In this document: positions 2,848-17,083 of the stretch, piece after piece
Layout of the letters: every line of letters begins with the position of its first letter
How positions within the stretch are numbered: position 1 is the stretch's first letter
NCBI GenBank assembly: GCA_017934955.1
Contig: JAGBIO010000005.1
Location: 39,642-71,641, forward strand
Direction of reading: 5' to 3'
Length of the DNA stretch: 32,000 bases
Source: Clostridia bacterium
GTDB lineage: Bacteria; Bacillota; Clostridia; TANB77; RGIG9151
Program-made: the position numbers and the translations under genes
The notes under the pieces: model-generated
What the model was told of the DNA's origin: nothing
What the model saw: only the letters and a program-made list of their open reading frames with translations
The model's database searches: none

Positions 2848-5274
2848 ATGTACAAATTTACCGAAAAAGCGGAAAAAGTGATAAAGCTATCGAAAGATGC
2901 GGCGGTTGCTTTGGGGCATAATTATGTGGGTACGGAGCATATTTTGTTGGCTTTGATGGAAGAGGGTAATGGTGTTGCTTGTAAGGTTTTGACTTTACAG
3001 GGACTTACAAAGGAGAATATAGCGGATAAAATTGAAGAGTTGATTGGACATGGCGTGGAAGAGGATGTGAAGATGCTTGGATTTACACCTCGTTCGAAGC
3101 GTGTGTTGGAAATTGCGTTTCATGAGGCACGTGGAAACGGGCAGGAGTTTATCGGAACGGAACATATTTTGTTGGCGATTATGAGGGAAAAAGACAGTAT
3201 TGCGGTGCGTGTTTTGGCGGATATGGGCGTTAATATGCAGTCGCTTTACGATGAAATATACAGAAGAGTATCGATTGAGTCGAAAAAGGCGGATTTGGAG
3301 CCGATTAAGAGAAATACGCGGAGCAATTTGACACCGACGTTGAATCAGTTTGGTCGGGACTTGACAGAACTTGCTGAGTTGGGAAAGATTGATCCGGTGA
3401 TTGGCAGAAGCGATGAAATTGAGCGTGTCATTCAGGTATTAAGTCGAAGAACGAAGAACAATCCTTGTTTGATTGGAGAGCCGGGTGTTGGAAAGACAGC
3501 GATTGCGGAAGGTTTAGCGCAAAAGATTGTGCAGGGAGATATTCCGGAGATTTTGAAGGATAAAAGAATTGTGACGTTGGATTTGTCTTCGGTGGTTGCG
3601 GGTGCGAAGTACCGAGGTGAGTTTGAAGAGCGAATCAAAAAGGCGTTAAATGAAGTCATAAAAGCCGGAAATGTTATTTTGTTTATTGATGAGTTGCATA
3701 CGATTGTGGGCGCAGGCGCTGCGGAAGGTGCGATTGATGCAGCGAATATTTTAAAACCGCTTTTGGCACGAGGCGAAATTCAGTTGGTTGGTGCGACGAC
3801 GTTGGATGAATATAAAAAGTATATTGAAAAGGATTCTGCGTTGGAGCGAAGATTTCAGCCGATTCAGGTGGATGAGCCGACTGAGGAGGATGCGATTCAG
3901 ATTTTAAGAGGGCTTCGGGATCGTTATGAGGCGCATCATAAGGTGAAGATTACCGATGAGGCAATTTTGTCGGCGGTGAAGTTGTCGAAGCGATATATTA
4001 GTGATCGTTGCTTGCCGGATAAGGCGATTGATTTGATGGATGAGGCGGCGTCGAAATTGCGTTTGTTGAGTTTTACCGAGCCGGCGAATATTAAAGAGAT
4101 TGAGGAAAAAATAAAGCGTTTCTCGGAGGAAAAAGAAGAAGCGATTAAGGTGCAGGATTTTGAGAGGGCGGCGGAAGTTCGAGATAAGGAACTGAAGCTG
4201 AAGACGCGTCTCGAGAATGCAAAGAAGGATTGGCAGAAGAAGAGTAAATTGACTGAGTCGGTTGTGGGAGAAGAACAGATTGCAGAGATTGTTTCGAAGT
4301 GGACGGGAATTCCTGTGACAAGGCTTGCGGAAGAGGAGACCGAGCGTTTAAAGAACATGGAGGAAACCTTGAAGAAACGAGTTGTCGGGCAGGATGAAGC
4401 GGTTATTTCGGTGTCTAAGGCGATTAAGAGAAGTCGTGTGGGGATTCAGGATCCTAAGCGTCCGATTGGTTCCTTTTTGTTCTTAGGACCGACGGGGGTT
4501 GGAAAAACCGAGTTGAGTAAGGCTTTGGCGGAAGTTTTGTTTGGCGATGAGAATGCGATGATTCGAATCGATATGTCGGAGTATATGGAGAAACATACCG
4601 TTTCTCGTTTGGTTGGTTCACCTCCGGGATATGTTGGTTACGAAGAGGGCGGTCAGCTTACCGATAAGATTCGTAGAAAGCCGTATTCGGTGTTGCTGTT
4701 TGACGAGATTGAAAAGGCGCATGAGGATGTGTTTAACATTCTTTTGCAGATTTTAGAGGATGGAAGATTGACCGATTCGCAGGGGAGAACGGTAAATTTC
4801 AATAATACGATTATTATTATGACGTCAAATGTGGGCGCTCGAACGATTTCGGATGGAAAGAAGTTGGGATTTGAGAAGGGCGAGAAGAAGGAAGAGAGTT
4901 ATCGGGATATTAAGAAAAACGTGATGGATGAGTTAAAGAGGACTTTCCGTCCGGAGTTTTTAAATCGTATTGATGATATTATTGTGTTCCATCAGTTGAA
5001 TGAAGATAATATTCGCAAAATTGTGGATATTATGGTGACGGAATTGGTAAAGCGTTTAGAAACGAAGGAAATCTTTATTGAAGTGGGAGATGACGTTCGA
5101 AACTTTATTGCGAAGAAGGGTTTTGATATTACCTACGGTGCAAGACCGCTACGAAGGGCGATTCAGAATGAGATTGAGGATATTGTGGCAGAGGGAATTT
5201 TGAATCGGGATATCAAGACCGGAAGGAAGGTTCGGTTGAAGGTTGTTGAGGATAAAGTGAAAGTAGAGAATTAA
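2848..5274 (+). CDS. clpC: ClpC-type AAA+ ATPase (Clp_N repeats, two AAA modules, UVR-like middle motif)
   Basis: N-terminal double Clp_N (GHNYVGTEHILLAL, EFIGTEHILLAI). Walker A GEPGVGKT and GPTGVGKT. UVR-like QDFERAAEVRDKE. 808 aa. Confidence 0.9.
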   Translation: MYKFTEKAEKVIKLSKDAAVALGHNYVGTEHILLALMEEGNGVACKVLTLQGLTKENIADKIEELIGHGVEEDVKMLGFTPRSKRVLEIAFHEARGNGQEFIGTEHILLAIMREKDSIAVRVLADMGVNMQSLYDEIYRRVSIESKKADLEPIKRNTRSNLTPTLNQFGRDLTELAELGKIDPVIGRSDEIERVIQVLSRRTKNNPCLIGEPGVGKTAIAEGLAQKIVQGDIPEILKDKRIVTLDLSSVVAGAKYRGEFEERIKKALNEVIKAGNVILFIDELHTIVGAGAAEGAIDAANILKPLLARGEIQLVGATTLDEYKKYIEKDSALERRFQPIQVDEPTEEDAIQILRGLRDRYEAHHKVKITDEAILSAVKLSKRYISDRCLPDKAIDLMDEAASKLRLLSFTEPANIKEIEEKIKRFSEEKEEAIKVQDFERAAEVRDKELKLKTRLENAKKDWQKKSKLTESVVGEEQIAEIVSKWTGIPVTRLAEEETERLKNMEETLKKRVVGQDEAVISVSKAIKRSRVGIQDPKRPIGSFLFLGPTGVGKTELSKALAEVLFGDENAMIRIDMSEYMEKHTVSRLVGSPPGYVGYEEGGQLTDKIRRKPYSVLLFDEIEKAHEDVFNILLQILEDGRLTDSQGRTVNFNNTIIIMTSNVGARTISDGKKLGFEKGEKKEESYRDIKKNVMDELKRTFRPEFLNRIDDIIVFHQLNEDNIRKIVDIMVTELVKRLETKEIFIEVGDDVRNFIAKKGFDITYGARPLRRAIQNEIEDIVAEGILNRDIKTGRKVRLKVVEDKVKVEN

Positions 5275-5315
5275 ATAAGGATTTTTAGAAGTGGTTCCGA
5301 AACGTTCCCAGTGCA

Positions 5316-5357
5316 AAATAAACGTTGGATATAGTATCCGGCGTTTATTTTTTTTGT
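5316..5357 (+). terminator. Intrinsic terminator of clpC
   Basis: AAATAAACGTTGGATA-TAG-TATCCGGCGTTTATTT forms a 16-bp stem (two G.U pairs) followed by a T8 run. Confidence 0.8.
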
Positions 5358-5392
5358 TGTATAGGAAAAATCAAAGATTTTGCCTATACAAC
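5356..5392. repeat. Unclassified hairpin (GTTGTATAGG-N17-CCTATACAAC). Its 3' flank ATTTTGCCTA..CAA recurs at 5463-5485.
   Basis: Perfect 10-bp inverted repeat plus a partial direct repeat, both read directly. Confidence 0.5.
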
Positions 5393-5490
5393 AAAAAACG
5401 CTCCGCGAGGAAGCACACTCGCACGAAAGGAAAGTTGCTCCGCAACTCGTGCTCAGCGCAGGTATTTTGCCTACGCAAAACATTTTTTGT

Positions 5491-5519
5491 TTGACAATTT
5501 TTGTAAAATGATATAAGAT
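5491..5519 (+). promoter_or_regulatory. Candidate sigma-A promoter with no obvious cognate CDS (TTGACA, then TATAAG/TAAGAT after 15-17 nt)
   Basis: Perfect -35 hexamer at 5491-5496. The -10 is AT-rich and imperfect. Confidence 0.3.
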
Positions 5520-5671
5520 AGAGTAAGTTGAAGCAATGGAATAATGAGAGAGTTAAATAGGTGGAAATAGATATTTTAGAGAACTATTACAACGAATTAG
5601 AGATATCCGGAAGTTGAAAATTCAGAATTGGAAAAAGTAGTTTATGACAATATCGTTTAAAATCAATTTTC

Positions 5672-5698
5672 AAAAGCAATTTAATAGATTTGCTTTTT
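5672..5698 (+). terminator. Small intrinsic terminator-like hairpin (AAAAGCAA-N10-TTGCTTTTT)
   Basis: 8-bp stem followed by a T-run, about 180 nt downstream of the orphan promoter. No ORF of 60 aa or more lies between them. Confidence 0.4.
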
Positions 5699-5789
5699 AC
5701 ATTTTTATCAATATAAATGATAATTTTTTATAAAAATAGTGGTAATACCGACTTAAGTTAATAAAATATATAAAGAAAGGAGAATAGTA

Positions 5790-6491
5790 ATGCAAGAAAA
5801 TGACTTAATTATATATAAAAATAGTGATGGCAATATTATAGTAGATGCAATATACAAAGATGAAACATTGTGGTTAACACAAAAAGGTATGTCAAAAGTT
5901 TTTGATTGTTCTATAGATAATATTTCCTTACATTTAAAAAATATTTTTAAAGATAATGAACTAAATGAAAATTCAGTTGTCGAGGATTCCTCGGTAACTG
6001 CTTCTGATGGAAAAAACTATAAGACGAAAATATATAATTTGGATGCTATAATTGCAGTTGGATACAGAGTTAATTCTAAAAAAGCAACTGAATTTAGAAT
6101 TTGGGCAACAAAAGTGTTAAAAGAATATATGACTAAAGGATTTGCTTTAAATGATGAACGTTTCATTAAAGGTAATAAATATGATGCAAAATATTTTGAT
6201 GAATTGCTTGAAAGAATTAAAACTATTCGTGTTAGTGAAAGAATGGCATATCAAAAAATTACAGATTTATTTATCGCAACATCAACCGACTATAGTCCTA
6301 AATCAGAAGAAGCATATACATTCTTTAAAATAGTACAAAATAAATTGCATTATGCTATTTCCGGACATACTGCAGCTGAACTTATATATAATAGAGTGAA
6401 TTCAGAAAAAGAACATATGGGGCTTACAAATTGGAAAAATTCTCCCGATGATTTAATATATAAATATGATGTAGTAGTTGCTAAAAATTAA
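5790..6491 (+). CDS. RhuM-family protein, C-terminally truncated (about two thirds of the usual length)
   Basis: RBS AAAGGAG. NLDAIIAVGYRVNSKKATEFRIWATKVLKEY and HYAISGHTAAELIY match my recollection of the RhuM family. The ORF stops right after VVVAKN, where family members continue with AKNYL and about 100 more residues. Very AT-rich DNA. Confidence 0.65.
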   Translation: MQENDLIIYKNSDGNIIVDAIYKDETLWLTQKGMSKVFDCSIDNISLHLKNIFKDNELNENSVVEDSSVTASDGKNYKTKIYNLDAIIAVGYRVNSKKATEFRIWATKVLKEYMTKGFALNDERFIKGNKYDAKYFDELLERIKTIRVSERMAYQKITDLFIATSTDYSPKSEEAYTFFKIVQNKLHYAISGHTAAELIYNRVNSEKEHMGLTNWKNSPDDLIYKYDVVVAKN

Positions 6492-6498
6492 TGATAGG

Positions 6499-6939
6499 AG
6501 ATGTATTATTAGGAATAGTATCATTATGTACATAATTTCCTATTTACCACAAGCAATTAAATTAATTAAAACAAAAGAATCAAAAGATTTAAGCAAAACT
6601 GCTTAGATAATATGGGGTGTAAGCAGTTTTTCATATTCATTGTATGCATTTCTGTGTTCTGATGAATTTATGTTAAAATTTGAAACTACATTAGAATTTT
6701 CTGTTACTAATCAGACTTAAAATTATAAAAATGTTACGAACACTGTAGGGACAGCATTTATGCTGTCCACAGAAAAGGCGGAAAGCAGGACAGCATGAAT
6801 GCTGTCCCTACAATGGTTGTAGCATCATTATAAAAAGCTATAGTCTGACCTGTAACAATTTTCTTTTTGTTTACTAATACTATTATTGACGGTAAAATAT
6901 AGAAATAATAAAATAGAAGGTGATAAAAATGACAAATAA
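6499..6939 (+). pseudogene. SemiSWEET/PQ-loop transporter remnant: 5'-truncated, in-frame TAG at 6604-6606, interrupted by the MITE at 6703-6856
   Basis: Frame 1 reads ..IIMYIISYLPQAIKLIKTKESKDLSKTA*IIWGVSSFSYSLYAFL..FETTLEFS, which carries the PQ motif. After removing the MITE plus one TSD copy (162 bp, 54 codons) the frame continues FCLLILLLTVKYRNNK.., a plausible last TM helix with a basic tail. Confidence 0.6.
6703..6856. mobile_element. MITE copy A (154 bp): TIRs GTTACTAATCAGACT / AGTCTGACCTGTAAC, internal inverted doublet of CAGCAT-type hairpins (6749-6768, 6788-6807), 8-bp TSD AATTTTCT (6695-6702 and 6857-6864)
   Basis: TIRs, the perfect direct duplication and similarity to the second copy at 22354-22523 were all read directly. 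Confidence 0.8.
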
Positions 6940-7804
6940 CGATGAAAAGTTAACTAAAGTAGTAATAAACTGGTTCCCTGGACATATGGTGAAGGCGAAG
7001 AAGGAAATTAAGGATAACTTAAAATTGGTGGATACGGTTATTGAGATTATTGATGCGAGGATTCCGAAAAGCAGCAGAAATCCGGATTTTGATGAGTTGG
7101 TGGCGAACAAGCCTCGGATTATTGCGTTAAATAAGTTTGATTTGGCGGATGAAGCGGTAAATCGAGAGTGGATTTCTTTTTTTAAGAAAAACGGACAGGC
7201 TGCGGTGTTGATTAATTCGATAACCGGTGCCGGAATTAAAGAATTATTGGCTTGTGCTTATCGTTCGGTTTCCGAGAAGATGGAACGGAATGCGGAGCGT
7301 GGTCGTGTGGGAAGAAGTGTGCGCGCAGCAGTGATTGGAATTCCGAATGCCGGAAAATCTTCTTTTATCAATAAAGTGGCGAAGAGAACTGTGGCAAATG
7401 TGGGAAACAAGCCGGGTGTGACGAGAACAAAACAATGGATTCGAACGGATGCGGGCGTGGAGTTGATGGATACGCCGGGGATTCTTTGGCCGAAGTTTGA
7501 AAAAGAAGAAATCGGGTTGCATTTAGCGTTTACCGGTGCGATTCGTTCGGAAATTTTGGATAACGCGGAGATTGCGTTGAAGTTGATTGGAGACCTTCGA
7601 AAGTATTATGCGCAGGAGTTGTTTGGACGATATAAGATAGAGACGGCAGAGAGTGACACGGATTTGGAGATTATGGAGAAAATCGGGAAGCGGCGTGGTT
7701 GTATTGTTTCGGGCGGCGAAGTGGATTATGAAAAAACGGCGAACATTATTTTAGATGAATTTCGAAAGGGGACAATTGGAAGGATTAGTTTGGAGAGACC
7801 TTAG
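6929..7804 (+). CDS. rbgA: Ribosome biogenesis GTPase A (YlqF/RbgA, circularly permuted GTPase)
   Basis: INWFPGHM start motif. LNKFDL (G4) precedes GIPNAGKSS (G1) and DTPG (G3). The start was moved to ATG 6929, behind GAAGGTGA. Confidence 0.85.
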   Translation: MTNNDEKLTKVVINWFPGHMVKAKKEIKDNLKLVDTVIEIIDARIPKSSRNPDFDELVANKPRIIALNKFDLADEAVNREWISFFKKNGQAAVLINSITGAGIKELLACAYRSVSEKMERNAERGRVGRSVRAAVIGIPNAGKSSFINKVAKRTVANVGNKPGVTRTKQWIRTDAGVELMDTPGILWPKFEKEEIGLHLAFTGAIRSEILDNAEIALKLIGDLRKYYAQELFGRYKIETAESDTDLEIMEKIGKRRGCIVSGGEVDYEKTANIILDEFRKGTIGRISLERP

Positions 7805-9441: not shown

Positions 9442-9482
9442 TAGAAATGATTGAATTTAATGAAGACTCAAAGTGAGTGTAG

Positions 9483-9670
9483 GGACAGCATGAATGCTGT
9501 CCGTACAGTAAATTAAGAATTAAAGTGGGAATATGGACATCAAATTAAGAACTAAAGTGAGTGTAGGGACAGCATGAATGCTGTCCGTACAGTAAATTAA
9601 GAATTAAAGTGGGAATATGGATATCAAATTAAGAACTAAAGTGAGTGTAGGGACAGCATTTATGCTGTCC
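9483..9670. repeat. Tandem array of 3 hairpins (cores 9483-9502, 9567-9586, 9651-9670), exact 84-bp period
   Basis: The unit GTGTAGGGACAGCATGAATGCTGTCCGTACAGTAAATTAAGAATTAAAGTGGGAATATGGA[C/T]ATCAAATTAAGAACTAAAGTGA occurs 2.4 times. The last core has loop TT. Confidence 0.9.
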
Positions 9671-9713
9671 GCGAAAAGGCACAAAGTAAATTTTGTATTA
9701 AGGGGCGAGGAAT

Positions 9714-11027
9714 ATGCGTATATTTGATATTATTGCGAAAAAAAGAGATGGCGGGGAATTGACGAAGGAGGAAATTGAATTTTTTATTCAGGGATATACC
9801 GCAGGGGCGATTGAGGATTATCAGGCGTCGGCTTTGGTGATGGCGATTTATATTAACGGAATGTCGAAACGGGAAACGGCGGATTTGACTTTGGCGATGG
9901 CGCATTCGGGTGATATGGCGGATTTGTCGGGTATTAATGGGGTAAAAGTGGATAAACACAGTACCGGTGGTGTCGGAGATAAGACGACGATGGTTGTGGC
10001 GCCTCTTGTAGCAAGTTTTGGAGTTCCGGTGGCGAAGATGTCGGGACGTGGACTTGGTCATACCGGCGGGACAATCGATAAGTTAGAATCGATTCGCGGA
10101 TTTCAGACGGCTATGCCGATTGAGAAGTTTATTGAAAATGTGAATACGATTCATATTGCGGTAGTAGGACAAACCGGGGATTTGGCACCGGCGGATAAGA
10201 AGTTGTATGCACTTCGTGACGTAACAGCTACCATTAGCTCGATTCCTTTAATTGCAAGCAGTATTATGAGTAAGAAAATCGCCGGAGGGGCGGATGCGAT
10301 TGTATTAGACGTGAAGTTTGGCGATGGTGCTTTTATGAAGACTTTAGAGGATGCGAAAACGTTGGCTAAGGCAATGGTAGATATCGGCGAAATGGTAGGC
10401 AGAAAGACGGTTGCTGTGATTTCGAACATGAATGAACCTCTTGGATTGGCGATTGGAAATGCGTTAGAGGTGGAGGAAGCGGTGGCGACGTTAAAGGGAA
10501 ACGGACCGAGAGATTTTGAAACGGTTTGTGTGGAATTAGCGGCACAGATGCTTTGCTTGGCGGGAAAAGGAAGTACAGATACGTTAAAGGAAGAGTTACA
10601 TACAAGGCTACAAAACGGTGTTGCGTTTGAAAAGTTTAAGGAGTTTGTGGCTGCGCAAGGCGGAGATGTTTCGGTGATTGAAAATTTGGATTTGTTACCG
10701 TCTGCCGAGTCGGTTGAGCCGATTTATGCGAAGAAATCCGGCTATATTAACAAGATTGAGGCGGAAAAATTAGGAATTGCTTCTATGTTGCTTGGAGGCG
10801 GCAGGGCGAAGAAAACCGATTTGATTGATTATGGTGTGGGAATTATTCTCAATAAAAAAGTTGCGGATTTTGTAAATGTTGGAGACAAAATTGCCGATTT
10901 ATATGTAAATGACAGAAGTAAATTGGCGGACGCTGTAAGTTTGATCGATGAGGCTTTTTCTTATCAAGAGGAGCGTTTAGAGGAAGAAACGTTAATTGCG
11001 GGAATTATTAGGGGAGACGAAAATTAG
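9714..11027 (+). CDS. pdp: Pyrimidine-nucleoside (thymidine) phosphorylase
   Basis: DKHSTGGVGDK and SGRGLGHTGGTIDKLE motifs. 437 aa. Confidence 0.9.
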   Translation: MRIFDIIAKKRDGGELTKEEIEFFIQGYTAGAIEDYQASALVMAIYINGMSKRETADLTLAMAHSGDMADLSGINGVKVDKHSTGGVGDKTTMVVAPLVASFGVPVAKMSGRGLGHTGGTIDKLESIRGFQTAMPIEKFIENVNTIHIAVVGQTGDLAPADKKLYALRDVTATISSIPLIASSIMSKKIAGGADAIVLDVKFGDGAFMKTLEDAKTLAKAMVDIGEMVGRKTVAVISNMNEPLGLAIGNALEVEEAVATLKGNGPRDFETVCVELAAQMLCLAGKGSTDTLKEELHTRLQNGVAFEKFKEFVAAQGGDVSVIENLDLLPSAESVEPIYAKKSGYINKIEAEKLGIASMLLGGGRAKKTDLIDYGVGIILNKKVADFVNVGDKIADLYVNDRSKLADAVSLIDEAFSYQEERLEEETLIAGIIRGDEN

Positions 11028-11041
11028 AGCGGAGGTAATTT

Positions 11042-11506
11042 ATGAAATGTCCTTTTTGTTATGTGCCGGAGAGTAAGGTTATTGATTCGCGACCTTCGGA
11101 TAACGGCGCAAGTATTCGAAGAAGACGGGAATGTGTGAGTTGTGGCAGGAAGTTTACAACGTATGAGCGAGTGGAAGAGATTCCGATTATGGTAATTAAG
11201 AAAGATGGAAGTCGTCAGGCTTTTGATCGAATGAAGATTACAAACGGAATTATGCGGGCTTGCGAGAAGCGTCCTGTGACGATGGACCAGATTGAGGAGA
11301 AGGTAAATCAGGTTGAGGCGAAAGTGTATAATAAATTGAGTAAGGAAATTTCTACAACGGAAATTGGAGAATTTGTGATGGATGCGCTAAAGGAGCTTGA
11401 CGATGTGGCGTATGTTCGTTTTGCATCGGTTTACCGGCAGTTTAAAGATTTGAATTCTTTTTTGGAGGAACTGCATGGACTTTTAGAGAAAAATGAGAAA
11501 AAGTGA
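11042..11506 (+). CDS. nrdR: Transcriptional repressor NrdR (zinc ribbon plus ATP-cone)
   Basis: MKCPFC..VIDSR...[17 protein letters not shown] followed by an ATP-cone domain. Confidence 0.9.
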
Positions 11507-11509
11507 TTA

Positions 11510-11529
11510 GGACAGTATGAACGCTGTCT
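11510..11529. repeat. Degenerate hairpin copy (GGACAGTATGAACGCTGTCT followed by GTACACAG)
   Basis: Three mismatches to the family consensus, immediately after the nrdR stop codon. Confidence 0.6.
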
Positions 11530-11592
11530 GTACACAGAAGGTATATAGGAAAGAAAAGAACAAAAGAAGAAAAAGGAGAGGAGTCTTGTTTC

Positions 11593-13221
11593 ATGCAAAT
11601 ATCTTTTTTAGGTGCGGCAAGGACGGTAACGGGATCTTGTTTCTTGGTTACAACAAATAAGTATAAGTTTTTAGTGGATTGCGGAATGTTTCAAGGGCAG
11701 AATAAAGAGGTAATGTTAAATGTAGATGATTTTACTTTTGCTCCGAATACGATAGATTTTATGTTTTTGACGCATGCGCATATCGATCATTCGGGAAGGA
11801 TTCCGAAGCTGTTTAACGATGGCTTTACCGGTAAGATTTATACGACGAAAGCGACGGCGGATTTGTGCGGAATTATGCTACCGGATAGCGGACATATTCA
11901 GGAGATGGAAATCGAGTGGATTAACCGGAAGCGTGTGAGAGCGGGAAAACATGAGATTCCGCCACTTTATACGGCGGAGATTGCGCTAAATTGCTTGAAG
12001 TTGTTTGAGCCGATGCCGTATGATGAAGTGATTCAAATTAACGATGAAATTAAGGTGAGATTCCGAGATGCCGGTCATATGTTAGGGTCTGCCGTGATTG
12101 AACTTTGGGTGAATGAAAACGGAAAAGAGACAAAGGTAGTTTTTACAGGAGACTTAGGAAACAGCGGTACGCCGATTTTGCGTGATCCGGAGTGGGTTGG
12201 TTCGGCAGATATTTTAGTAATGGAATCGACTTACGGGGATCGAAATCATAAAGATCGGGAAGATCGGTTTGAAAATTTTGTAGATATTGTGAATGAGACT
12301 TTGGATAAAGGCGGAAGAGTGGTAATTCCTTCTTTCGCGGTGGGAAGAACGCAGGAAATTGTATATGGGTTAAATCAAAATCAGAATAAATTTAAGGAAA
12401 AGTATGAAAGAATTTTGAGAACTCCGGTTTATGTAGATAGTCCGTTAGCGATTTCGGCGACGGAGATTTATAAGGAAAATCCGCAGTGTTATGATGAAGA
12501 GGCGAGAAGATACATTTTGGAGAATAAAAATCCGGTAGATTTTCCGACTTTGAAATTGACACGTACGGTGGAGGAGTCAAAGGCGATTAATGAAACGGAT
12601 GAGCCTGCCATTATCATTTCGGCGAGCGGAATGTGTGAGGCAGGAAGAATTCGACATCATTTAAAACATCATTTGTGGGAAGAAAACAGTACGATTTTGT
12701 TTGTCGGACATCAGGCGCAGGGTACGTTGGGCAGAAGATTGGTGGACGGCGAAAAGCAGGTTCGGATTTTTGGAGAAGATATTACCGTAAAGGCGAGAAT
12801 TGAGTTTATTGAGGGATTCTCCGGGCATGCCGATCAAAAGACACTATTAAATTGGCTTGGAAATTTTGAGAAGAAGCCACAGACAATTTTTGTGGTTCAC
12901 GGTGATCCGGATGTGCAGGATGTTTTTGCGAGCGTTATCAGTGATACATACGGAATTCGTACGATTGTTCCGAATCGAGGAGATATCTTTGATATCGGGG
13001 AAGACAGAGTGGCTCAAGTCGGAGAAGAATCCAATGAAAGAAAATATAGATTTATGTGTCTTGAAATTTTGGAGAAACTTAATCTTTTGAAAGATGAAGT
13101 AGATGAGATGTGCTTGATGATTAAAGAGGATTTGAGAGCCGGAATGAGTAGTGAAGAGTTTGAGGATATGAAGGCGCGGTTAAGAAAGGTTGAAAAGTCG
13201 ATTATTGCGACATTAGAGTAG
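11593..13221 (+). CDS. Metallo-beta-lactamase / beta-CASP family RNA-processing nuclease with C-terminal coiled-coil extension
   Basis: HAHIDHSG (HxHxDH). Beta-CASP-like ESTYGDR and GFSGHAD motifs. 542 aa. Confidence 0.75.
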   Translation: MQISFLGAARTVTGSCFLVTTNKYKFLVDCGMFQGQNKEVMLNVDDFTFAPNTIDFMFLTHAHIDHSGRIPKLFNDGFTGKIYTTKATADLCGIMLPDSGHIQEMEIEWINRKRVRAGKHEIPPLYTAEIALNCLKLFEPMPYDEVIQINDEIKVRFRDAGHMLGSAVIELWVNENGKETKVVFTGDLGNSGTPILRDPEWVGSADILVMESTYGDRNHKDREDRFENFVDIVNETLDKGGRVVIPSFAVGRTQEIVYGLNQNQNKFKEKYERILRTPVYVDSPLAISATEIYKENPQCYDEEARRYILENKNPVDFPTLKLTRTVEESKAINETDEPAIIISASGMCEAGRIRHHLKHHLWEENSTILFVGHQAQGTLGRRLVDGEKQVRIFGEDITVKARIEFIEGFSGHADQKTLLNWLGNFEKKPQTIFVVHGDPDVQDVFASVISDTYGIRTIVPNRGDIFDIGEDRVAQVGEESNERKYRFMCLEILEKLNLLKDEVDEMCLMIKEDLRAGMSSEEFEDMKARLRKVEKSIIATLE

Positions 13222-13356
13222 GAAAGGAGTGGACCCATATGAACCCATTATTTATTTTTTCAAGAACAACAGAAGAGAATAAGTATAACAATAGAATGGT
13301 AAAATTTGTAATGGGGGGGGACACTATTAGATAAAAAGAAGAAAGAAGAAAGAAAA

Positions 13357-13400
13357 GGAAGTAGTTTAAAGTCATAAGGGCTTTAGACTGCTTCCTTTTT
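13357..13400 (+). terminator. Strong intrinsic terminator, 26 nt upstream of the next start codon
   Basis: 15-bp continuous stem (GGAAGTAGTTTAAAG / CTTTAGACTGCTTCC, two G.U pairs), 9-nt loop, then TTTTTGTGTTTT. Confidence 0.75.
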
Positions 13401-13425
13401 GTGTTTTAAAGAAAGGGTGGATGAG

Positions 13426-15369
13426 ATGAAGAGAGGTTTGAAATTTAGTTTATTTCTGTTAATGATGGGGGTGATGTTGGGAATAGGCAGTGTTGCGGAG
13501 GCGGCAGTTCCGGCTTATAGTTATACAGGAACGTCGAGTACGTCAACGGATAGCAATTATTGGTATATTTACTTAAAATCTTCCGGAACGCTGAAATTTA
13601 CCAGTGAATCACCGAAAATTGATGCTTTCCTAGTAGGAGGAGGCGGTGGTGGTGCTCAATCCTGGTATGATAGTAACTATGGTCAAGGAGGCGGTGGCGG
13701 TGGCTATACCAAAACGGTAGACAATATTTCCTTAACAAGTGGAACCGGATATGCAATTACCATAGGCGCTGGAGGTGCTGGACTTTGCGATAGTGAAAGG
13801 TACGCTGGAACCGGAGGCACAACATCTGCATTTAACTATAGTGCAGCCGGAGGTGGAGGCGCAAAGAAGAGTGGTAGTGGTAACTCTTTGGGAGGAACGG
13901 GCGGTTCAAATGGTGGGACCCCCGGAAATGCAGGAAGTAATGGTGCATATGCATTTGGTGATAGTAGTTTAAGTCGTTATGGAGCTGGCGGCGGAGGCGG
14001 TGGTAATGCCGGAGCTGCCGGAGCTGCCGGAGGTGCTAACGGTGGAGGAACCGGAGGAAATGGATATTCAAATCCTGCTGGCCAAAATGGAACAGCGAAT
14101 ACCGGCGGAGGCGGAGGCGGTGCAGGCGGTAACGGCGGTTGGTCTTGTGAAGAGGCCGGCGGAACCGGAGGTAGCGGTATCGTTATCATTCGAGGGTGTT
14201 TAGCTCATAAAGGAGGAACGCATGCGAATGGAGGAAAGTGTACCACTTGTGGAGTTGTATACCAAACACACAGTCAATCAAGCACGGTATCAAGTTACAC
14301 CAAAACGAGCACGCAACATACACCGAATTACGCATGTAGCTACAGCGGATGTACGACGACATATGCGGGAACGGCGGCGAACCATAGCGGAGCGACGCAT
14401 AATAACGGAGGAAAGTGTACCGTGTGTGAGTATGTATACCAAACACACAGTCAATCAAGCACGGTATCAGGTTATACGACAACAAGCACGCAACATACAC
14501 CAAATTATGCATGTAGCTACAGCGGATGTACGACGACATATGCGGGAACGGCGGCGAACCATAGCGGAGCGACGCATAATAACGGAGGAAAGTGTACCGT
14601 GTGTGAGTATGTATATGAAACGCACAGTCAGTCGACGGCAATTGTAAGTTATACGCAAACAAGCACACAACATACGCCAATTTATGCGTGTACGTTAAAC
14701 GGATGCTCGGGAACATATGCCGGAACAACAGAACTCCACAGCGGAGGCGGAGAAAATGACGGAATGTGCGGGATTTGCGGAATGCAGTATCAAACGCATA
14801 GTCCTTCTACGAATATCGTAACTTATAAGCAAACAGAAACACAACATACACCAATTTATGAATGTAATGTAACGAATTGTACACAACTTTATTTAGGAAC
14901 AGCAGAAAATCATAGCGGAGCGACGCATAATAATGGGGGAAAATGTACCGTTTGCGGATATGTTTACGAAACCCATGGTCAATCTGAAACGGTTGTCTCC
15001 TATACGCAACAAGAAACAGGACATATTCCTGTGTATGGTTGTACCTATAGTGGATGTGCATCAACTTATACCGGAACATTACAACTCCATGACGGAACGA
15101 TAGAATTACATGTAGCAAACAGTTCTTGTGAATCGTGCGGTTGGGGAAGTGAAAATACGGGTGGAACGTATGTATTAACAATAAATTATAATGATACTGT
15201 CGTAACAAAAGACGTGGAATCGGGTAGAATTGTAACGTTAGGAATAGGAAGTCGTGTTGATGCGACATATACTGTAACTACCGGAAATGCTGTACTAAAA
15301 ATGTATGGAACTCGTCGGCAATTTGTGATGCCGGCAGAAAATGTTACGATTACAATCCAAGATATATAG
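13426..15369 (+). CDS. Secreted glycine-rich protein with 5.5 tandem 59-aa Cys/His modules and a C-terminal beta-rich domain
   Basis: RBS AAAGGGTGG. Signal peptide MKRGLKFSLFLLMMGVMLGIGSVAEA. GGGGGG runs ending in GSGIVIIRG. Repeats of H.G.TH.NGGKCT.C.YVY.THSQS...Y..T.TQHTP.Y.C...C...Y.GT. C-terminal F.MPAENVTITI resembles InlB-B-repeat-like domains. Confidence 0.8.
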   Translation: MKRGLKFSLFLLMMGVMLGIGSVAEAAVPAYSYTGTSSTSTDSNYWYIYLKSSGTLKFTSESPKIDAFLVGGGGGGAQSWYDSNYGQGGGGGGYTKTVDNISLTSGTGYAITIGAGGAGLCDSERYAGTGGTTSAFNYSAAGGGGAKKSGSGNSLGGTGGSNGGTPGNAGSNGAYAFGDSSLSRYGAGGGGGGNAGAAGAAGGANGGGTGGNGYSNPAGQNGTANTGGGGGGAGGNGGWSCEEAGGTGGSGIVIIRGCLAHKGGTHANGGKCTTCGVVYQTHSQSSTVSSYTKTSTQHTPNYACSYSGCTTTYAGTAANHSGATHNNGGKCTVCEYVYQTHSQSSTVSGYTTTSTQHTPNYACSYSGCTTTYAGTAANHSGATHNNGGKCTVCEYVYETHSQSTAIVSYTQTSTQHTPIYACTLNGCSGTYAGTTELHSGGGENDGMCGICGMQYQTHSPSTNIVTYKQTETQHTPIYECNVTNCTQLYLGTAENHSGATHNNGGKCTVCGYVYETHGQSETVVSYTQQETGHIPVYGCTYSGCASTYTGTLQLHDGTIELHVANSSCESCGWGSENTGGTYVLTINYNDTVVTKDVESGRIVTLGIGSRVDATYTVTTGNAVLKMYGTRRQFVMPAENVTITIQDI

Positions 15370-15399
15370 CAAAAAGTTTTTGTGTGATAGAAAATTCAA

Positions 15400-15437
15400 A
15401 GAGGGTGTGAATCGAAAAGGATTCACACCCTCTTTTC
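15400..15437. terminator. Bidirectional intrinsic terminator between convergent genes
   Basis: AGAGGGTGTGAATC-GAAAAG-GATTCACACCCTCT, a 14-bp stem flanked by an A-run and a T-run. Confidence 0.85.
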
Positions 15438-15459
15438 TATAAGGGGAGTTGAAATGACA

Positions 15460-16311
15460 TTATAAGCTTTGTAAAAGCTGTAAGATGGATTCGTTTTGTT
15501 TGTTGGCTTGGGCTAACATTGTCATGGCAACTTGAGATAGCATTGCATATTTTGTATAATTCATCATTTCTTCTGCCATATCGACGTCGCGAATACGAGA
15601 TTCGGCAGCGGTTAGATTTTCTTCGGTAGTTTCTAAGTTATTCATGGTATAGTCTAAACGGTTTTGTACGGCGCCTAAGGTGGTTCGTTGTAAAGTAACT
15701 TTGGAAAGGGCGGAGTCGATTCCTTTTAATGTTTCATTCATTGCACTTGGGGAAGAAATATCGATGGAGAATCTTGCTCCTTCTGTATCGGAGAGTCCTT
15801 TGGAGGACATATCGTTGATTTCAACGGAGATTCGATCGCAGTCATTGGTGCTTGCCCCTACTTGAAATACGGCAGGGGAATCTTTTCCGCAGGAGCCGTC
15901 TAAGATGTTTTTGGTGTTAAAGGTTGTGGTGGCAGCGATTCGGTCAATTTCGTCACGAAGAGAGGAAAGTTCTACTTCGATGGCGCTTCGGTCGGATTCA
16001 GAAAGAACGCCGGTATTTTGCGCTTTAATTACTAATTCGCGCATTCTTTGTAAAATATCCGTACTTTGTTCTAAGGCGCCTTCGCCGGTTTGAAGAAAGG
16101 AAACGGCATCTTGCACGTTGGATTGCGCTTGACGAAGCCCACGAATTTGAGCGCGCATTCTTTCACTGATGGCAAGCCCTACCGGGTCGTCGGCAGCACT
16201 ATTAATTCGTAGTCCGGAAGCGAGTCGTTTCATAGACTTTTCCATATAAGATTGATTTTTTCTTAAGGCGTTTAGTGCATTTAACGCCATGACATTGGAA
16301 TTGATTCTCAT
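15460..16311 (-). CDS. fliC: Flagellin (283 aa)
   Basis: MRINSNVMALNA start, LASGLRINSAADD, C-terminal AESRIRDVDMAEEM..LAQANKQ..LQLLQSL. The start was set at ATG 16311, behind GGAGGAGG. Confidence 0.9.
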   Translation of the reverse strand: MRINSNVMALNALNALRKNQSYMEKSMKRLASGLRINSAADDPVGLAISERMRAQIRGLRQAQSNVQDAVSFLQTGEGALEQSTDILQRMRELVIKAQNTGVLSESDRSAIEVELSSLRDEIDRIAATTTFNTKNILDGSCGKDSPAVFQVGASTNDCDRISVEINDMSSKGLSDTEGARFSIDISSPSAMNETLKGIDSALSKVTLQRTTLGAVQNRLDYTMNNLETTEENLTAAESRIRDVDMAEEMMNYTKYAMLSQVAMTMLAQANKQNESILQLLQSL

Positions 16312-16366
16312 GCTATTACCTCCTCCGTGAGATAAATCTGCATCCATACAGGTTACTATATTTTAT

Positions 16367-16394
16367 ATATCGTCATTTTGTTACGTTAACTTTA
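16367..16394 (-). promoter_or_regulatory. Sigma-28 (SigD/FliA)-type promoter of the flagellin gene
   Basis: The minus strand reads TAAA-N16-GACGATAT, against the consensus TAAA-N15-GCCGATAT. Confidence 0.65.
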
Positions 16395-16448
16395 GCGAAA
16401 TAAGGAAAAATGATAGGGGAGGAAATAATATTATTATTTAACAAAAAT

Positions 16449-16468
16449 GGACAGCATGAATGCTGTCC
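16449..16468. repeat. Single hairpin copy (GGACAGCATGAATGCTGTCC). On the minus strand it is followed by ATTTTTGTT.
   Basis: Read directly. It lies 30 nt downstream of the mini-flagellin stop codon on the minus strand, so it is shaped like an intrinsic terminator. Confidence 0.85.
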
Positions 16469-16497
16469 GTACGGTTCTATGAAACGATATTTTTATA

Positions 16498-16815
16498 TTA
16501 AAAATCCAATAAATTTGCAACATCGGTTGCGTTAGAATTTGCCTGGGAGAGAAGTGCGGTTCCGGATTTATGCAACATTGCTTGTTTCGTGATATTTAAA
16601 TATTCTCTTGCCATATCGACATCAGTGATTTTTGATTCGGCTGCTTCTGTGTTACTAAGTGCCAAATCTTCGGTATTGATTTCCGGATCGATAAGAGCTT
16701 CTTCGGAGGTTAAATTAACTCCGGAAGCAATTTTTTTCGCAGAAGTTTCAATGTTTTTCTGACTTGTTTTAATTGAATTTAATGCACTTTGATATAAGTT
16801 TGATGTAATTTTCAT
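16498..16815 (-). CDS. Mini-flagellin: 105-aa protein with only flagellin N-terminal and C-terminal D0-like segments
   Basis: MKITSNLYQSALNS..KKIASGVNLTSEEA aligns with the flagellin N-terminus. AESKITDVDMAREYLNITKQAMLHKSGTALLSQANSN..LLDF aligns with the flagellin C-terminus. GGAGG RBS and its own sigma-28 promoter. Confidence 0.75.
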   Translation of the reverse strand: MKITSNLYQSALNSIKTSQKNIETSAKKIASGVNLTSEEALIDPEINTEDLALSNTEAAESKITDVDMAREYLNITKQAMLHKSGTALLSQANSNATDVANLLDF

Positions 16816-16864
16816 AATAGCCTCCGATTTCTTACAGTTTTAATATTAACATATTCCAATATTA

Positions 16865-16892
16865 ATATCGGCAGAAGTAACAAATAAATTTA
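16865..16892 (-). promoter_or_regulatory. Sigma-28-type promoter of the mini-flagellin gene
   Basis: The minus strand reads TAAA-N16-GCCGATAT, a perfect -10 octamer. Confidence 0.7.
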
Positions 16893-16938
16893 GTGTTTTT
16901 TTGTATTTTTTCGAAAATTTTTTTCATCGGGGGACGTT

Positions 16939-16998
16939 GGACAGCATGAATGCTGTCCACAGAATAGGCAGAAAAGCAGGACAGCATAAATGCTGTCC
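16939..16998. repeat. Direct doublet of hairpins (16939-16958 loop GA; 16979-16998 loop AA) with spacer ACAGAATAGGCAGAAAAGCA
   Basis: Read directly. Confidence 0.9.
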
Positions 16999-17083
16999 GT
17001 ACATCATTATAAGCAAATATGTCTGCCTTGTAATTTCTCGATGCAAAATTTTTGAAAAAATACTGTGCAAATCTCAAAAAATT

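Follow-up and report, generated by a model that had tools for sequence, protein, structure and literature searches.

Tandem arrays of small domains form the stalks of the Gram-positive periscope and fibrillar adhesins (Rib, SHIRT, G5-E, Cna-B), and a glycine-rich fold is found at the tips of phage fibres. In gp24 of Pam3, the glycine-rich domain and a TNF-like domain together make up the distal tip to which host-receptor recognition has been assigned, and the authors of that work point to the likeness of the gp24 domain with gp38 of S16 and with ALK (PMC9608196). Here we describe a gene, at 13426..15369 on the + strand of a 32,000-nucleotide stretch of contig JAGBIO010000005.1 (the window), whose product joins a head of this glycine-rich kind to a tandem array of 59-residue Cys/His modules. 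From the ATG at 13426, the open reading frame (ORF; 13399/13426..15369) specifies 647 amino acids (aa) followed by a stop codon. Their order is signal peptide, Gly_rich_2 domain, five full modules with a partial sixth, and a small β domain.

By every library searched, the module is an undescribed domain family, and its confidently predicted fold is without structural relatives. What is new is this module family; the architecture of the protein is known, as are Gly_rich_2 surface or secreted proteins of Clostridia. We favor, with a probability of roughly 0.55, the reading that the gene encodes a Sec-exported, non-enzymatic binding protein with a head, a metal-stapled stalk of variable length, and a tail. 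The head (aa 27–258) would be the likely binding element, by analogy with the use of its fold for ligand binding in phage fibre tips and in ALK and LTK. The stalk (aa 259–572) would consist of 5.5 all-β modules, almost without a hydrophobic core and held by metal, most likely zinc. Its knuckles, C14-x2-C17 and C46-x4-C51, may form a Cys4 site like that of rubredoxin or a zinc ribbon, with H3, H8, H24, and H40 forming a second site or stapling the link between modules. Unequal crossing-over would change the number of modules and so set the length of the stalk. The tail (aa 573–647), β-grasp-like and putatively related to the InlB B-repeat, may provide non-covalent attachment, as the absence of a covalent anchor leads us to suppose, or protein–protein contact.

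Head and tail of a probably exported protein

The first 26 residues (13426..13503), followed by an AEA/AV cleavage motif, read as a Sec-type signal peptide: by eye, n-, h-, and c-regions are recognizable in the N-terminus (MKRGLKFSLFLLMMGVMLGIGSVAEA/AVP), as is an AxA cleavage site. The other end of the protein, ...VTITIQDI, has no LPXTG-like motif in its last 60 aa. A Pfam scan and a motif check of the 647-aa protein gave no anchor, and the motif, hydrophobic segment, and basic tail that define the sortase-anchored LPXTG class are not found together in it. An initial annotation of the gene had proposed a signal peptide, a protein without an anchor, a gene convergent with flagellin genes, and a glycine-rich domain resembling those of phage tail fibres. 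All four proposals agree with the present results, the flagellin gene lying on the − strand at 15460-16347.

The head (aa 27–258; 13504..14199) belongs to the known family Gly_rich_2. Its residues 54–257 are 36% Gly and close with GSGIVIIRG, and Pfam matches them to Gly_rich_2 (PF21722) with a score of 51.1 bits (cutoff 24.3; E 2.4e-13), aa 54–256 covering profile positions 4–224 of 226. In PHROGs, aa 22–173 match phrog_2295, a phage family of unknown function. A full-length AlphaFold model, built on an alignment of 36 rows, gives aa 27–258 values of pLDDT (the predicted local distance difference test score) mostly above 90, with β-strands alternating with poly-Gly loops. When this model is compared with the PDB by Foldseek, the head matches the fibre of cyanophage Pam3 (7ypx_A) and the tail tip of mycobacteriophage Bxb1 (9d93_Qb), each with E 5.8e-5 and probability 1.0, at 23–24% identity over ~240 columns. 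The glycine-rich domains of ALK and LTK are the next matches (E 0.06–0.35).

The tail is a C-terminal β domain of ~75 aa (aa 573–647; 15142..15366) that contains neither Cys nor His. It had first been taken for an InlB-B-repeat or Ig-like domain; a distant likeness is plausible, but membership of the family is not supported. Phmmer finds the tail domain also at the C-terminus of relatives P0001-P0003 and P0183 and directly after the signal peptide in P0016, and P0010 and P0013 align with it over the same N-terminal stretch as P0016. Two of these proteins, P0010 and P0016, carry the source name "InlB B-repeat-containing protein", and Pfam places Flg_new or Flg_new_2 elsewhere in P0010, P0013, and P0016. 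The tail domain itself matches nothing in Pfam at E ≤1, Flg_new_2 (PF18998, PF09479) included, and jackhmmer fails to recruit it when seeded with a true Flg_new_2 repeat. An hhalign comparison of a six-sequence tail alignment with an 89-repeat Flg_new_2 profile gives a probability of 79.7% (E 1.5e-5) over 49 columns, the F.MP..NV motif among them. Foldseek matches the tail to the InlB B-repeat 2y5p with probability 0.66–0.69, a TM score of 0.49, and E 1.2, for a domain modelled at a pLDDT of just 61–78. It also returns 9qr4_A (probability 0.80) and β-grasp ferredoxins, all with E ~1. It is plausible that the tail is distantly like the InlB B-repeat and Flg_new_2, with a β-grasp fold, and stands outside the family.

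The module and its putative metal sites

The array starts with module 1 (aa 259–317; 14200..14376), which directly follows a conserved Cys258 (context C-x2-H). Module 2 (aa 318–376; 14377..14553) is a hybrid, its N-half being that of module 3 and its C-half that of module 1, a pattern that marks unequal crossing-over, and is missing from a metagenome contig (L001) to which we return below. Then come module 3 (aa 377–435; 14554..14730), module 4 (aa 436–493; 14731..14904), which is a variant of 58 aa without H8, and module 5 (aa 494–552; 14905..15081), with the rubredoxin-like first knuckle KCTVCGYVYE. The partial module 6 (aa 553–572; 15082..15141) retains solely H555, H562, C568, and C571 and has low pLDDT in the full-length model. 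All lie on the + strand, and the five full modules measure 59, 59, 59, 58, and 59 aa. The CxxC motifs begin at residues 272, 331, 390, 448, 507, and 568 and the Cx4C motifs at 304, 363, 422, 480, and 539, so that the Cys of the full modules are 272/275/304/309, 331/334/363/368, 390/393/422/427, 448/451/480/485, and 507/510/539/544. The period of 177 nt is picked up by Tandem Repeats Finder at 14230-14746 (score 717), and adjacent modules are 81–84% identical in DNA. The repeat is far beyond chance, since searches of homologues with a hidden Markov model (HMM) made from the five modules recover every module there with E values of 1e-26 to 1e-35.

Conservation was computed over 187 distinct near-full modules from all family members. 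C14, C17, and C46 are conserved in 100% of them and C51 in 98%; for the His residues the figures are 99.5% (H24), 99% (H40), 98% (H8), and 94% (H3). Among the residues that are not candidate ligands, G12 reaches 100%, Y21 97%, and N10 91%. Cys is the sole recurrent replacement of H3, in 16 of ~280 distinct module matches, and such an exchange is typical of a metal ligand. We also considered H3-to-Cys as a marker of the first module of an array, where an inter-module site with the preceding H40 would be lacking, and rejected it, the replacement occurring in 7 of 110 internal and 11 of 152 first modules. The initial annotation had recognized five full and one partial tandem module of about 59 aa with CxxC and Cx4C pairs, which is what we see, the sixth being only H..H..CxxC. 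Of the four to five conserved His that it counted per module, four stand (H3, H8, H24, and H40, with module 4 lacking H8) and the fifth does not. Its description of the Cys spacing as zinc-ribbon-like and of the module as no described family is in line with the searches that follow. The structure prediction that it had suggested for the module gave a confident model, and the zinc-ribbon matches of that model are not significant.

In Pfam at E ≤1, the module gives only sub-threshold matches on one knuckle: Rubredoxin (PF00301; 12.1 bits, cutoff 23), Zn_ribbon_RPB9 (11.9 bits, cutoff 25.2), and zf-C2H2_3 (11.1 bits). NCBIfam gives only the rubredoxin model NF045768 (22.1 bits, cutoff 90), and no PHROGs family matches. 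A profile of 45 modules finds nothing better than E 0.1 among all PDB sequences. Its best matches there, not significant at E 0.1–0.3, are the Cx4C-type C2H2 fingers of WT1, ZIC3, and YY1, over the stretch "HTP.Y.C....C..Y". A classical C2H2 finger was rejected, given the spacing C-x4-C-x10-H-x4-H, a model without a helix, and PDB E values of 0.1 or more. In the literature on PF21722/Gly_rich_2 and on extracellular zinc-ribbon or Cys-rich repeats of Firmicutes surface proteins we found no description of the module.

The AlphaFold model of the module, which spans 2.3 modules and was built on an alignment of 33 two-module windows, has a mean pLDDT of 94.7, no residue below 70, and an entirely β structure. 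Secondary structure assigned by DSSP on this model comprises single β-bridges on either side of the CxxC, at positions 13 and 20, a long hairpin of positions 26–35 and 39–46 that ends at C46, and short strands at 54–56 and 60–61. Against the PDB, Foldseek finds no significant relative of the 2.3-module model (best E 0.18, TM ≤0.2). Zinc ribbons of NrdR are among its weak matches in the PDB and viral libraries (probability 0.14–0.38, E ~1). The best structural match in the viral library (E 4e-3, 141 columns at 20% identity) is BFVD A0A8S5QLF9, a protein that belongs to a gut virome contig and is named "S-layer homology domain (Fragment)"; it suggests the same fold in an SLH-anchored protein.

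A fold so small and polar almost certainly needs cross-links: of the 314 residues of the array, 22 are Cys and 21 His (13.7%), 29% are Ser or Thr, and only 17% are A, V, I, L, M, F, or W. We infer from sequence and model that the module is probably stabilized by metal, most likely zinc. With eight near-invariant candidate ligands per module, two tetrahedral metal sites would be possible in each. Judging from the model, it is rather likely that these ligands divide into a Cys4 site of zinc-ribbon or rubredoxin type (C14, C17, C46, C51) and a His cluster (H3, H8, H24, H40). This partition is favored because H40 and C46 stand six residues apart on one strand, an estimated ~20 Å and too far for a shared metal, and because both Cys pairs lie at hairpin turns in the model. 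That the array both starts and ends with H..H..CxxC suggests instead units of HCCH (H8, C14, C17, H24 and H40, C46, C51, H3') or of HHCC.

A more demanding proposal, which we regard as doubtful, is that the module is a two-metal extracellular domain with a rubredoxin- or zinc-ribbon-like Cys4 site and a His site bridging successive modules, the array forming a metal-dependent rod that becomes stiffer or weaker, or keeps or loses its integrity, with the supply of zinc or iron or the redox state at the surface of strict anaerobes. If so, such rods would make up a novel type of extracellular metalloprotein stalk, one to which nothing in the PDB is structurally related.

Several observations weigh against the metal-stapled stalk. 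If all sites were Cys4, the terminal CxxC (C568/C571) would be an orphan without a partner knuckle. Other Cys/His repeats in the relatives tile as H-x3-5-C-x1-4-C-x7-11-[H/C], which suggests HCCH sites, and the Foldseek search cited above gives no significant zinc-ribbon match (best E 0.18). Since the 647-aa protein has no anchor, it may be released rather than displayed, and a stalk may be the wrong picture. The housekeeping genes around it offer no hint of function. Finally, a strong terminator 27 nt upstream of the start codon, with no recognizable promoter between the two, implies that any transcription would proceed by read-through or from an unrecognized promoter.

The same side chains might serve metal traffic rather than structure. 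In the pneumococcal histidine-triad (Pht) proteins of Firmicutes, extracellular repeated zinc-binding motifs feed a zinc importer. With ~43 Cys and His side chains in an exported array and eight conserved candidate ligands per module, the present protein could similarly capture or buffer zinc or another metal at the surface. We consider this improbable. The HxxHxH triad, by which Pht proteins are recognized, is absent from the 647-aa protein, as is CxxCH, and invariant ligands inside a confidently predicted compact fold are typical of structural, not exchangeable, sites. No metal transporter lies beside the gene or beside two of its relatives, and most family members look like multidomain proteins of adhesin type.

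In many organisms, disulfide bonds are the rule in Cys-rich repeats outside the cell, and the AlphaFold fold of the module is confident with no metal modelled. A small, knotted, disulfide-bonded domain that binds no metal, and in which the His have other roles, is nevertheless decidedly improbable in our judgment. Metal is preferred over disulfides because H3 exchanges only with Cys, because the four His match the Cys in conservation, and because the CxxC and Cx4C pairs sit in turns flanked by β-bridges, as in the knuckles of rubredoxin and zinc ribbons. The host, moreover, would be a gut anaerobe to judge from its relatives among metagenome-assembled genomes (MAGs) of gut and rumen Clostridia.

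The knuckle KCTVCGYVYE is closely like the first knuckle of rubredoxin, and both PF00301 and NF045768 leave traces on the module, which raises the thought of a redox-active array at the surface of an anaerobe, in which iron bound by Cys4 sites of rubredoxin type would carry electrons or act as a redox sensor. This is very improbable: both matches fall far below threshold (12 and 22 bits against cutoffs of 23 and 90), one Cys4 site per elongated 59-aa module would probably place the centres too far apart for electron tunnelling, and no partner redox genes are found nearby.

If the module does bind metal, tandem zinc-ribbon-like units would here have an unusual extracellular role, that of a stalk whose length varies, and the module would also be a small scaffold free of a hydrophobic core that might interest protein engineers. 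For the present, its value is mainly to annotation and structural biology. The surface proteins of uncultured gut Clostridia are largely unannotated, and the module is a ready candidate for a new domain family because no family model or structural relative was found for it.

Relatives, copy number, and genomic setting

In a scan of 1.84 billion representative proteins (clusters at 50% identity), the module profile finds 94 at E ≤1e-3, 65 of which reach 1e-10 and 30 of which reach 1e-30. The survey of its distribution thus shows a rare module, in ~94 clusters that are mostly anchored-looking surface proteins, and the only name that the sources give to matches is "hypothetical protein", from Clostridia MAGs. 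In most of these proteins, the N-terminus carries a signal or transmembrane segment and the C-terminus a signal of sortase type (IPKAG, IPNTG, or LPQTG, a hydrophobic stretch, and KKYKDI), and Pfam detects a trace of PF00746 among them. Others have a Dockerin_1 end, BspA-type leucine-rich repeats (LRRs), or, in P0163, Gly_rich_2 and Flg_new_2. Wherever the module occurs, it forms tandem arrays, with a terminal signal or transmembrane segment on one side and a further domain or an anchor on the other. The exact architecture of the present gene is common only to P0001-P0003. That the module joins signal or transmembrane segments to sortase anchors, dockerins, and LRRs fits the generic role of a spacer or stalk.

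The sortase-anchored relatives P0004-P0009 and P0012 carry further Cys/His repeats (for example, P0004 aa 780–1000), of the forms DGTHSxxCxxCxYxxxExH and ExHHWxxCxxC...H. These are four-ligand units without a Pfam match, and module-rich relatives such as P0004 have no Pfam match in general. They and the 59-aa module may together belong to a larger superfamily of extracellular Cys/His mini-domains.

Searches with the full protein found no relative among 185,579 species genomes, which places the host species outside the species-genome representatives, and none among 2.9 million viral contigs. The metagenome contig L001, from the same species, is 99.0–99.8% identical to the window over 13.7 kb, minus exactly 177 nt, or one module. 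There are thus five full modules in the window and four in L001, although assembly collapse in the metagenome contig is possible. The comparison has both features of a stalk of variable length, namely a tandem array and a copy number that differs between near-identical genomes.

Upstream of the gene, the window holds HtrA, ClpC, RNase HII, NrdR, and RNase J, and downstream of it flagellin, pyruvate kinase, EF-P, NifS/NifU, HrcA, DnaK, DnaJ, and FliD. No phage gene adjoins it, and neither sortase, nor metal-transporter, nor other conserved neighbours are seen beside two module-bearing relatives. The RNase J just upstream is 82–85% identical to those of uncultured "Eubacteriales" and of Clostridia MAGs from chicken, rumen, and human (Hadza) gut, and from these nearest relatives we infer that the host is an uncultured anaerobe of the gut Clostridia. 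None of 80 loci around RNase J orthologues (50–85% identity) has a homologue of the gene. In the relative L005 (82% RNase J identity; 9630-13400), synteny with the window (13222-17000) stops right after RNase J, and the ORFs that follow, read from their translations, are RpiB-like, a multi-pass membrane protein, and UDP-GlcNAc 2-epimerase-like. That the gene is a prophage-derived tail-fibre or receptor-binding remnant rather than a cellular surface protein is hardly credible, since the phage-fibre and phrog_2295 matches of its head are set against a Sec-type signal peptide seen on inspection, which is not expected of phage fibres, neighbours (RNase J, NrdR, flagellin, pyruvate kinase, EF-P) without an adjacent phage gene, the lack of any relative in the viral contigs, and module relatives with LPXTG anchors, dockerins, and LRRs.

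The 209-nt intergenic region at 13222-13430 has a folding z-score of −5.6. A terminator-like hairpin of ~20–22 bp followed by a U-run lies there at 13353..13399 (+), 27 nt 5′ of the start codon. Between RNase J and the hairpin, a small ORF of 31 aa (13239-13334), also called in L001, has a strong AGGAG ribosome-binding site right after the RNase J stop. The hairpin probably ends the transcript of RNase J and the small ORF; alternatively, small ORF and hairpin could be a leader/attenuator arrangement. In the upstream region, Rfam gave no family at gathering thresholds and noise alone at E ≤1, and a riboswitch or other leader RNA was rejected on that ground. No promoter-like site was recognized between the hairpin and the gene, which is preceded by a purine-rich ribosome-binding site, AAAGGGTGG, at 13412..13420 (+), 5–6 nt 5′ of the ATG by sequence.

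On the other side, a 16-bp hairpin at 15398..15435 lies between the gene and the convergent flagellin gene. It is terminator-like on the − strand only, but T-rich on both sides, and may act on both strands. The full flagellin gene is adjoined by a 105-aa ORF at 16498-16815 (−) that matches only the C-terminal helical Flagellin_C, and that may be a fragment or pseudogene of flagellin, or else a very short protein of flagellin type.

Elsewhere in the window, an 84-nt tandem repeat at 9470-9671 (2.4 copies, 97% matches, score 383) with the internal palindrome GGGACAGCATGAATGCTGTCC lies between the genes for a UPF0102 protein and a thymidine/pyrimidine-nucleoside phosphorylase. A low-GC islet at 5001-7000 (GC 0.29–0.32 against ~0.42 elsewhere), in which the GC skew is reduced and a RhuM-family gene lies at 5790-6491, may be a small mobile insertion. 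The GC skew of the + strand, which carries nearly all the genes, is very strong (~+0.3 to +0.47 per kb) and falls over 14–17 kb, the part that holds the Thr/His-rich repeats and the convergent flagellin genes.

Comparison with known systems

Like the zinc ribbons and rubredoxin (the N-terminal ribbon of NrdR, RPB9/TFIIS), the module has two Cys pairs at turns beside β-structure, and the first knuckle CTVCGYVY is common to it and rubredoxin. It differs from them in the 21-residue β-hairpin between its knuckles and in four extra invariant His. The zinc ribbons known to us are single cytoplasmic domains, whereas the module is extracellular and in tandem. The likeness to the classical C2H2 fingers of WT1, ZIC3, and YY1 is local: the H-T-P-x-Y-x-C-x4-C-x3-Y of the module may be set beside the H-TGEKP-Y-x-C-x4-C-x3-F of the finger. 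Those fingers have x12 and x3 (x3-5) spacing and a ββα fold, while the module has x10 and x4 and is free of helix.

The tail aligns with Flg_new_2 over a stretch that includes the ..F.MP..NV.. motif and may have a fold like that of the InlB B-repeat, with no match above the family threshold. The head superposes on the Gly_rich_2-type tips of phage fibres (Pam3 gp24, 7ypx/7yfw; Bxb1, 9d93) and covers nearly all of PF21722, but those tips are parts of virions, whereas here the head belongs to a cellular protein exported by a predicted signal peptide. The Pam3 domain is a trimer and that of ALK a monomer, and either state is possible for the present head. Many Gly_rich_2 proteins of Clostridia are, like this one, joined to domains of InlB-B-repeat type; the fusion to an array of Cys/His modules is seen in only a handful of them (P0001-P0003, P0163).

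The nearest parallel for the array is offered by the stalks of the periscope and fibrillar adhesins. They too are made of small domains in tandem, their copy number likewise differs between near-identical genomes, and most relatives of the module have anchors of LPXTG type. The present protein, however, has no anchor, and the DNA identity of classical periscope repeats is higher than the 81–84% of its adjacent modules. The fold of periscope domains is also unrelated to that of the module: what holds a periscope domain together is a hydrophobic core or isopeptide bonds, and what holds the module together is apparently metal.

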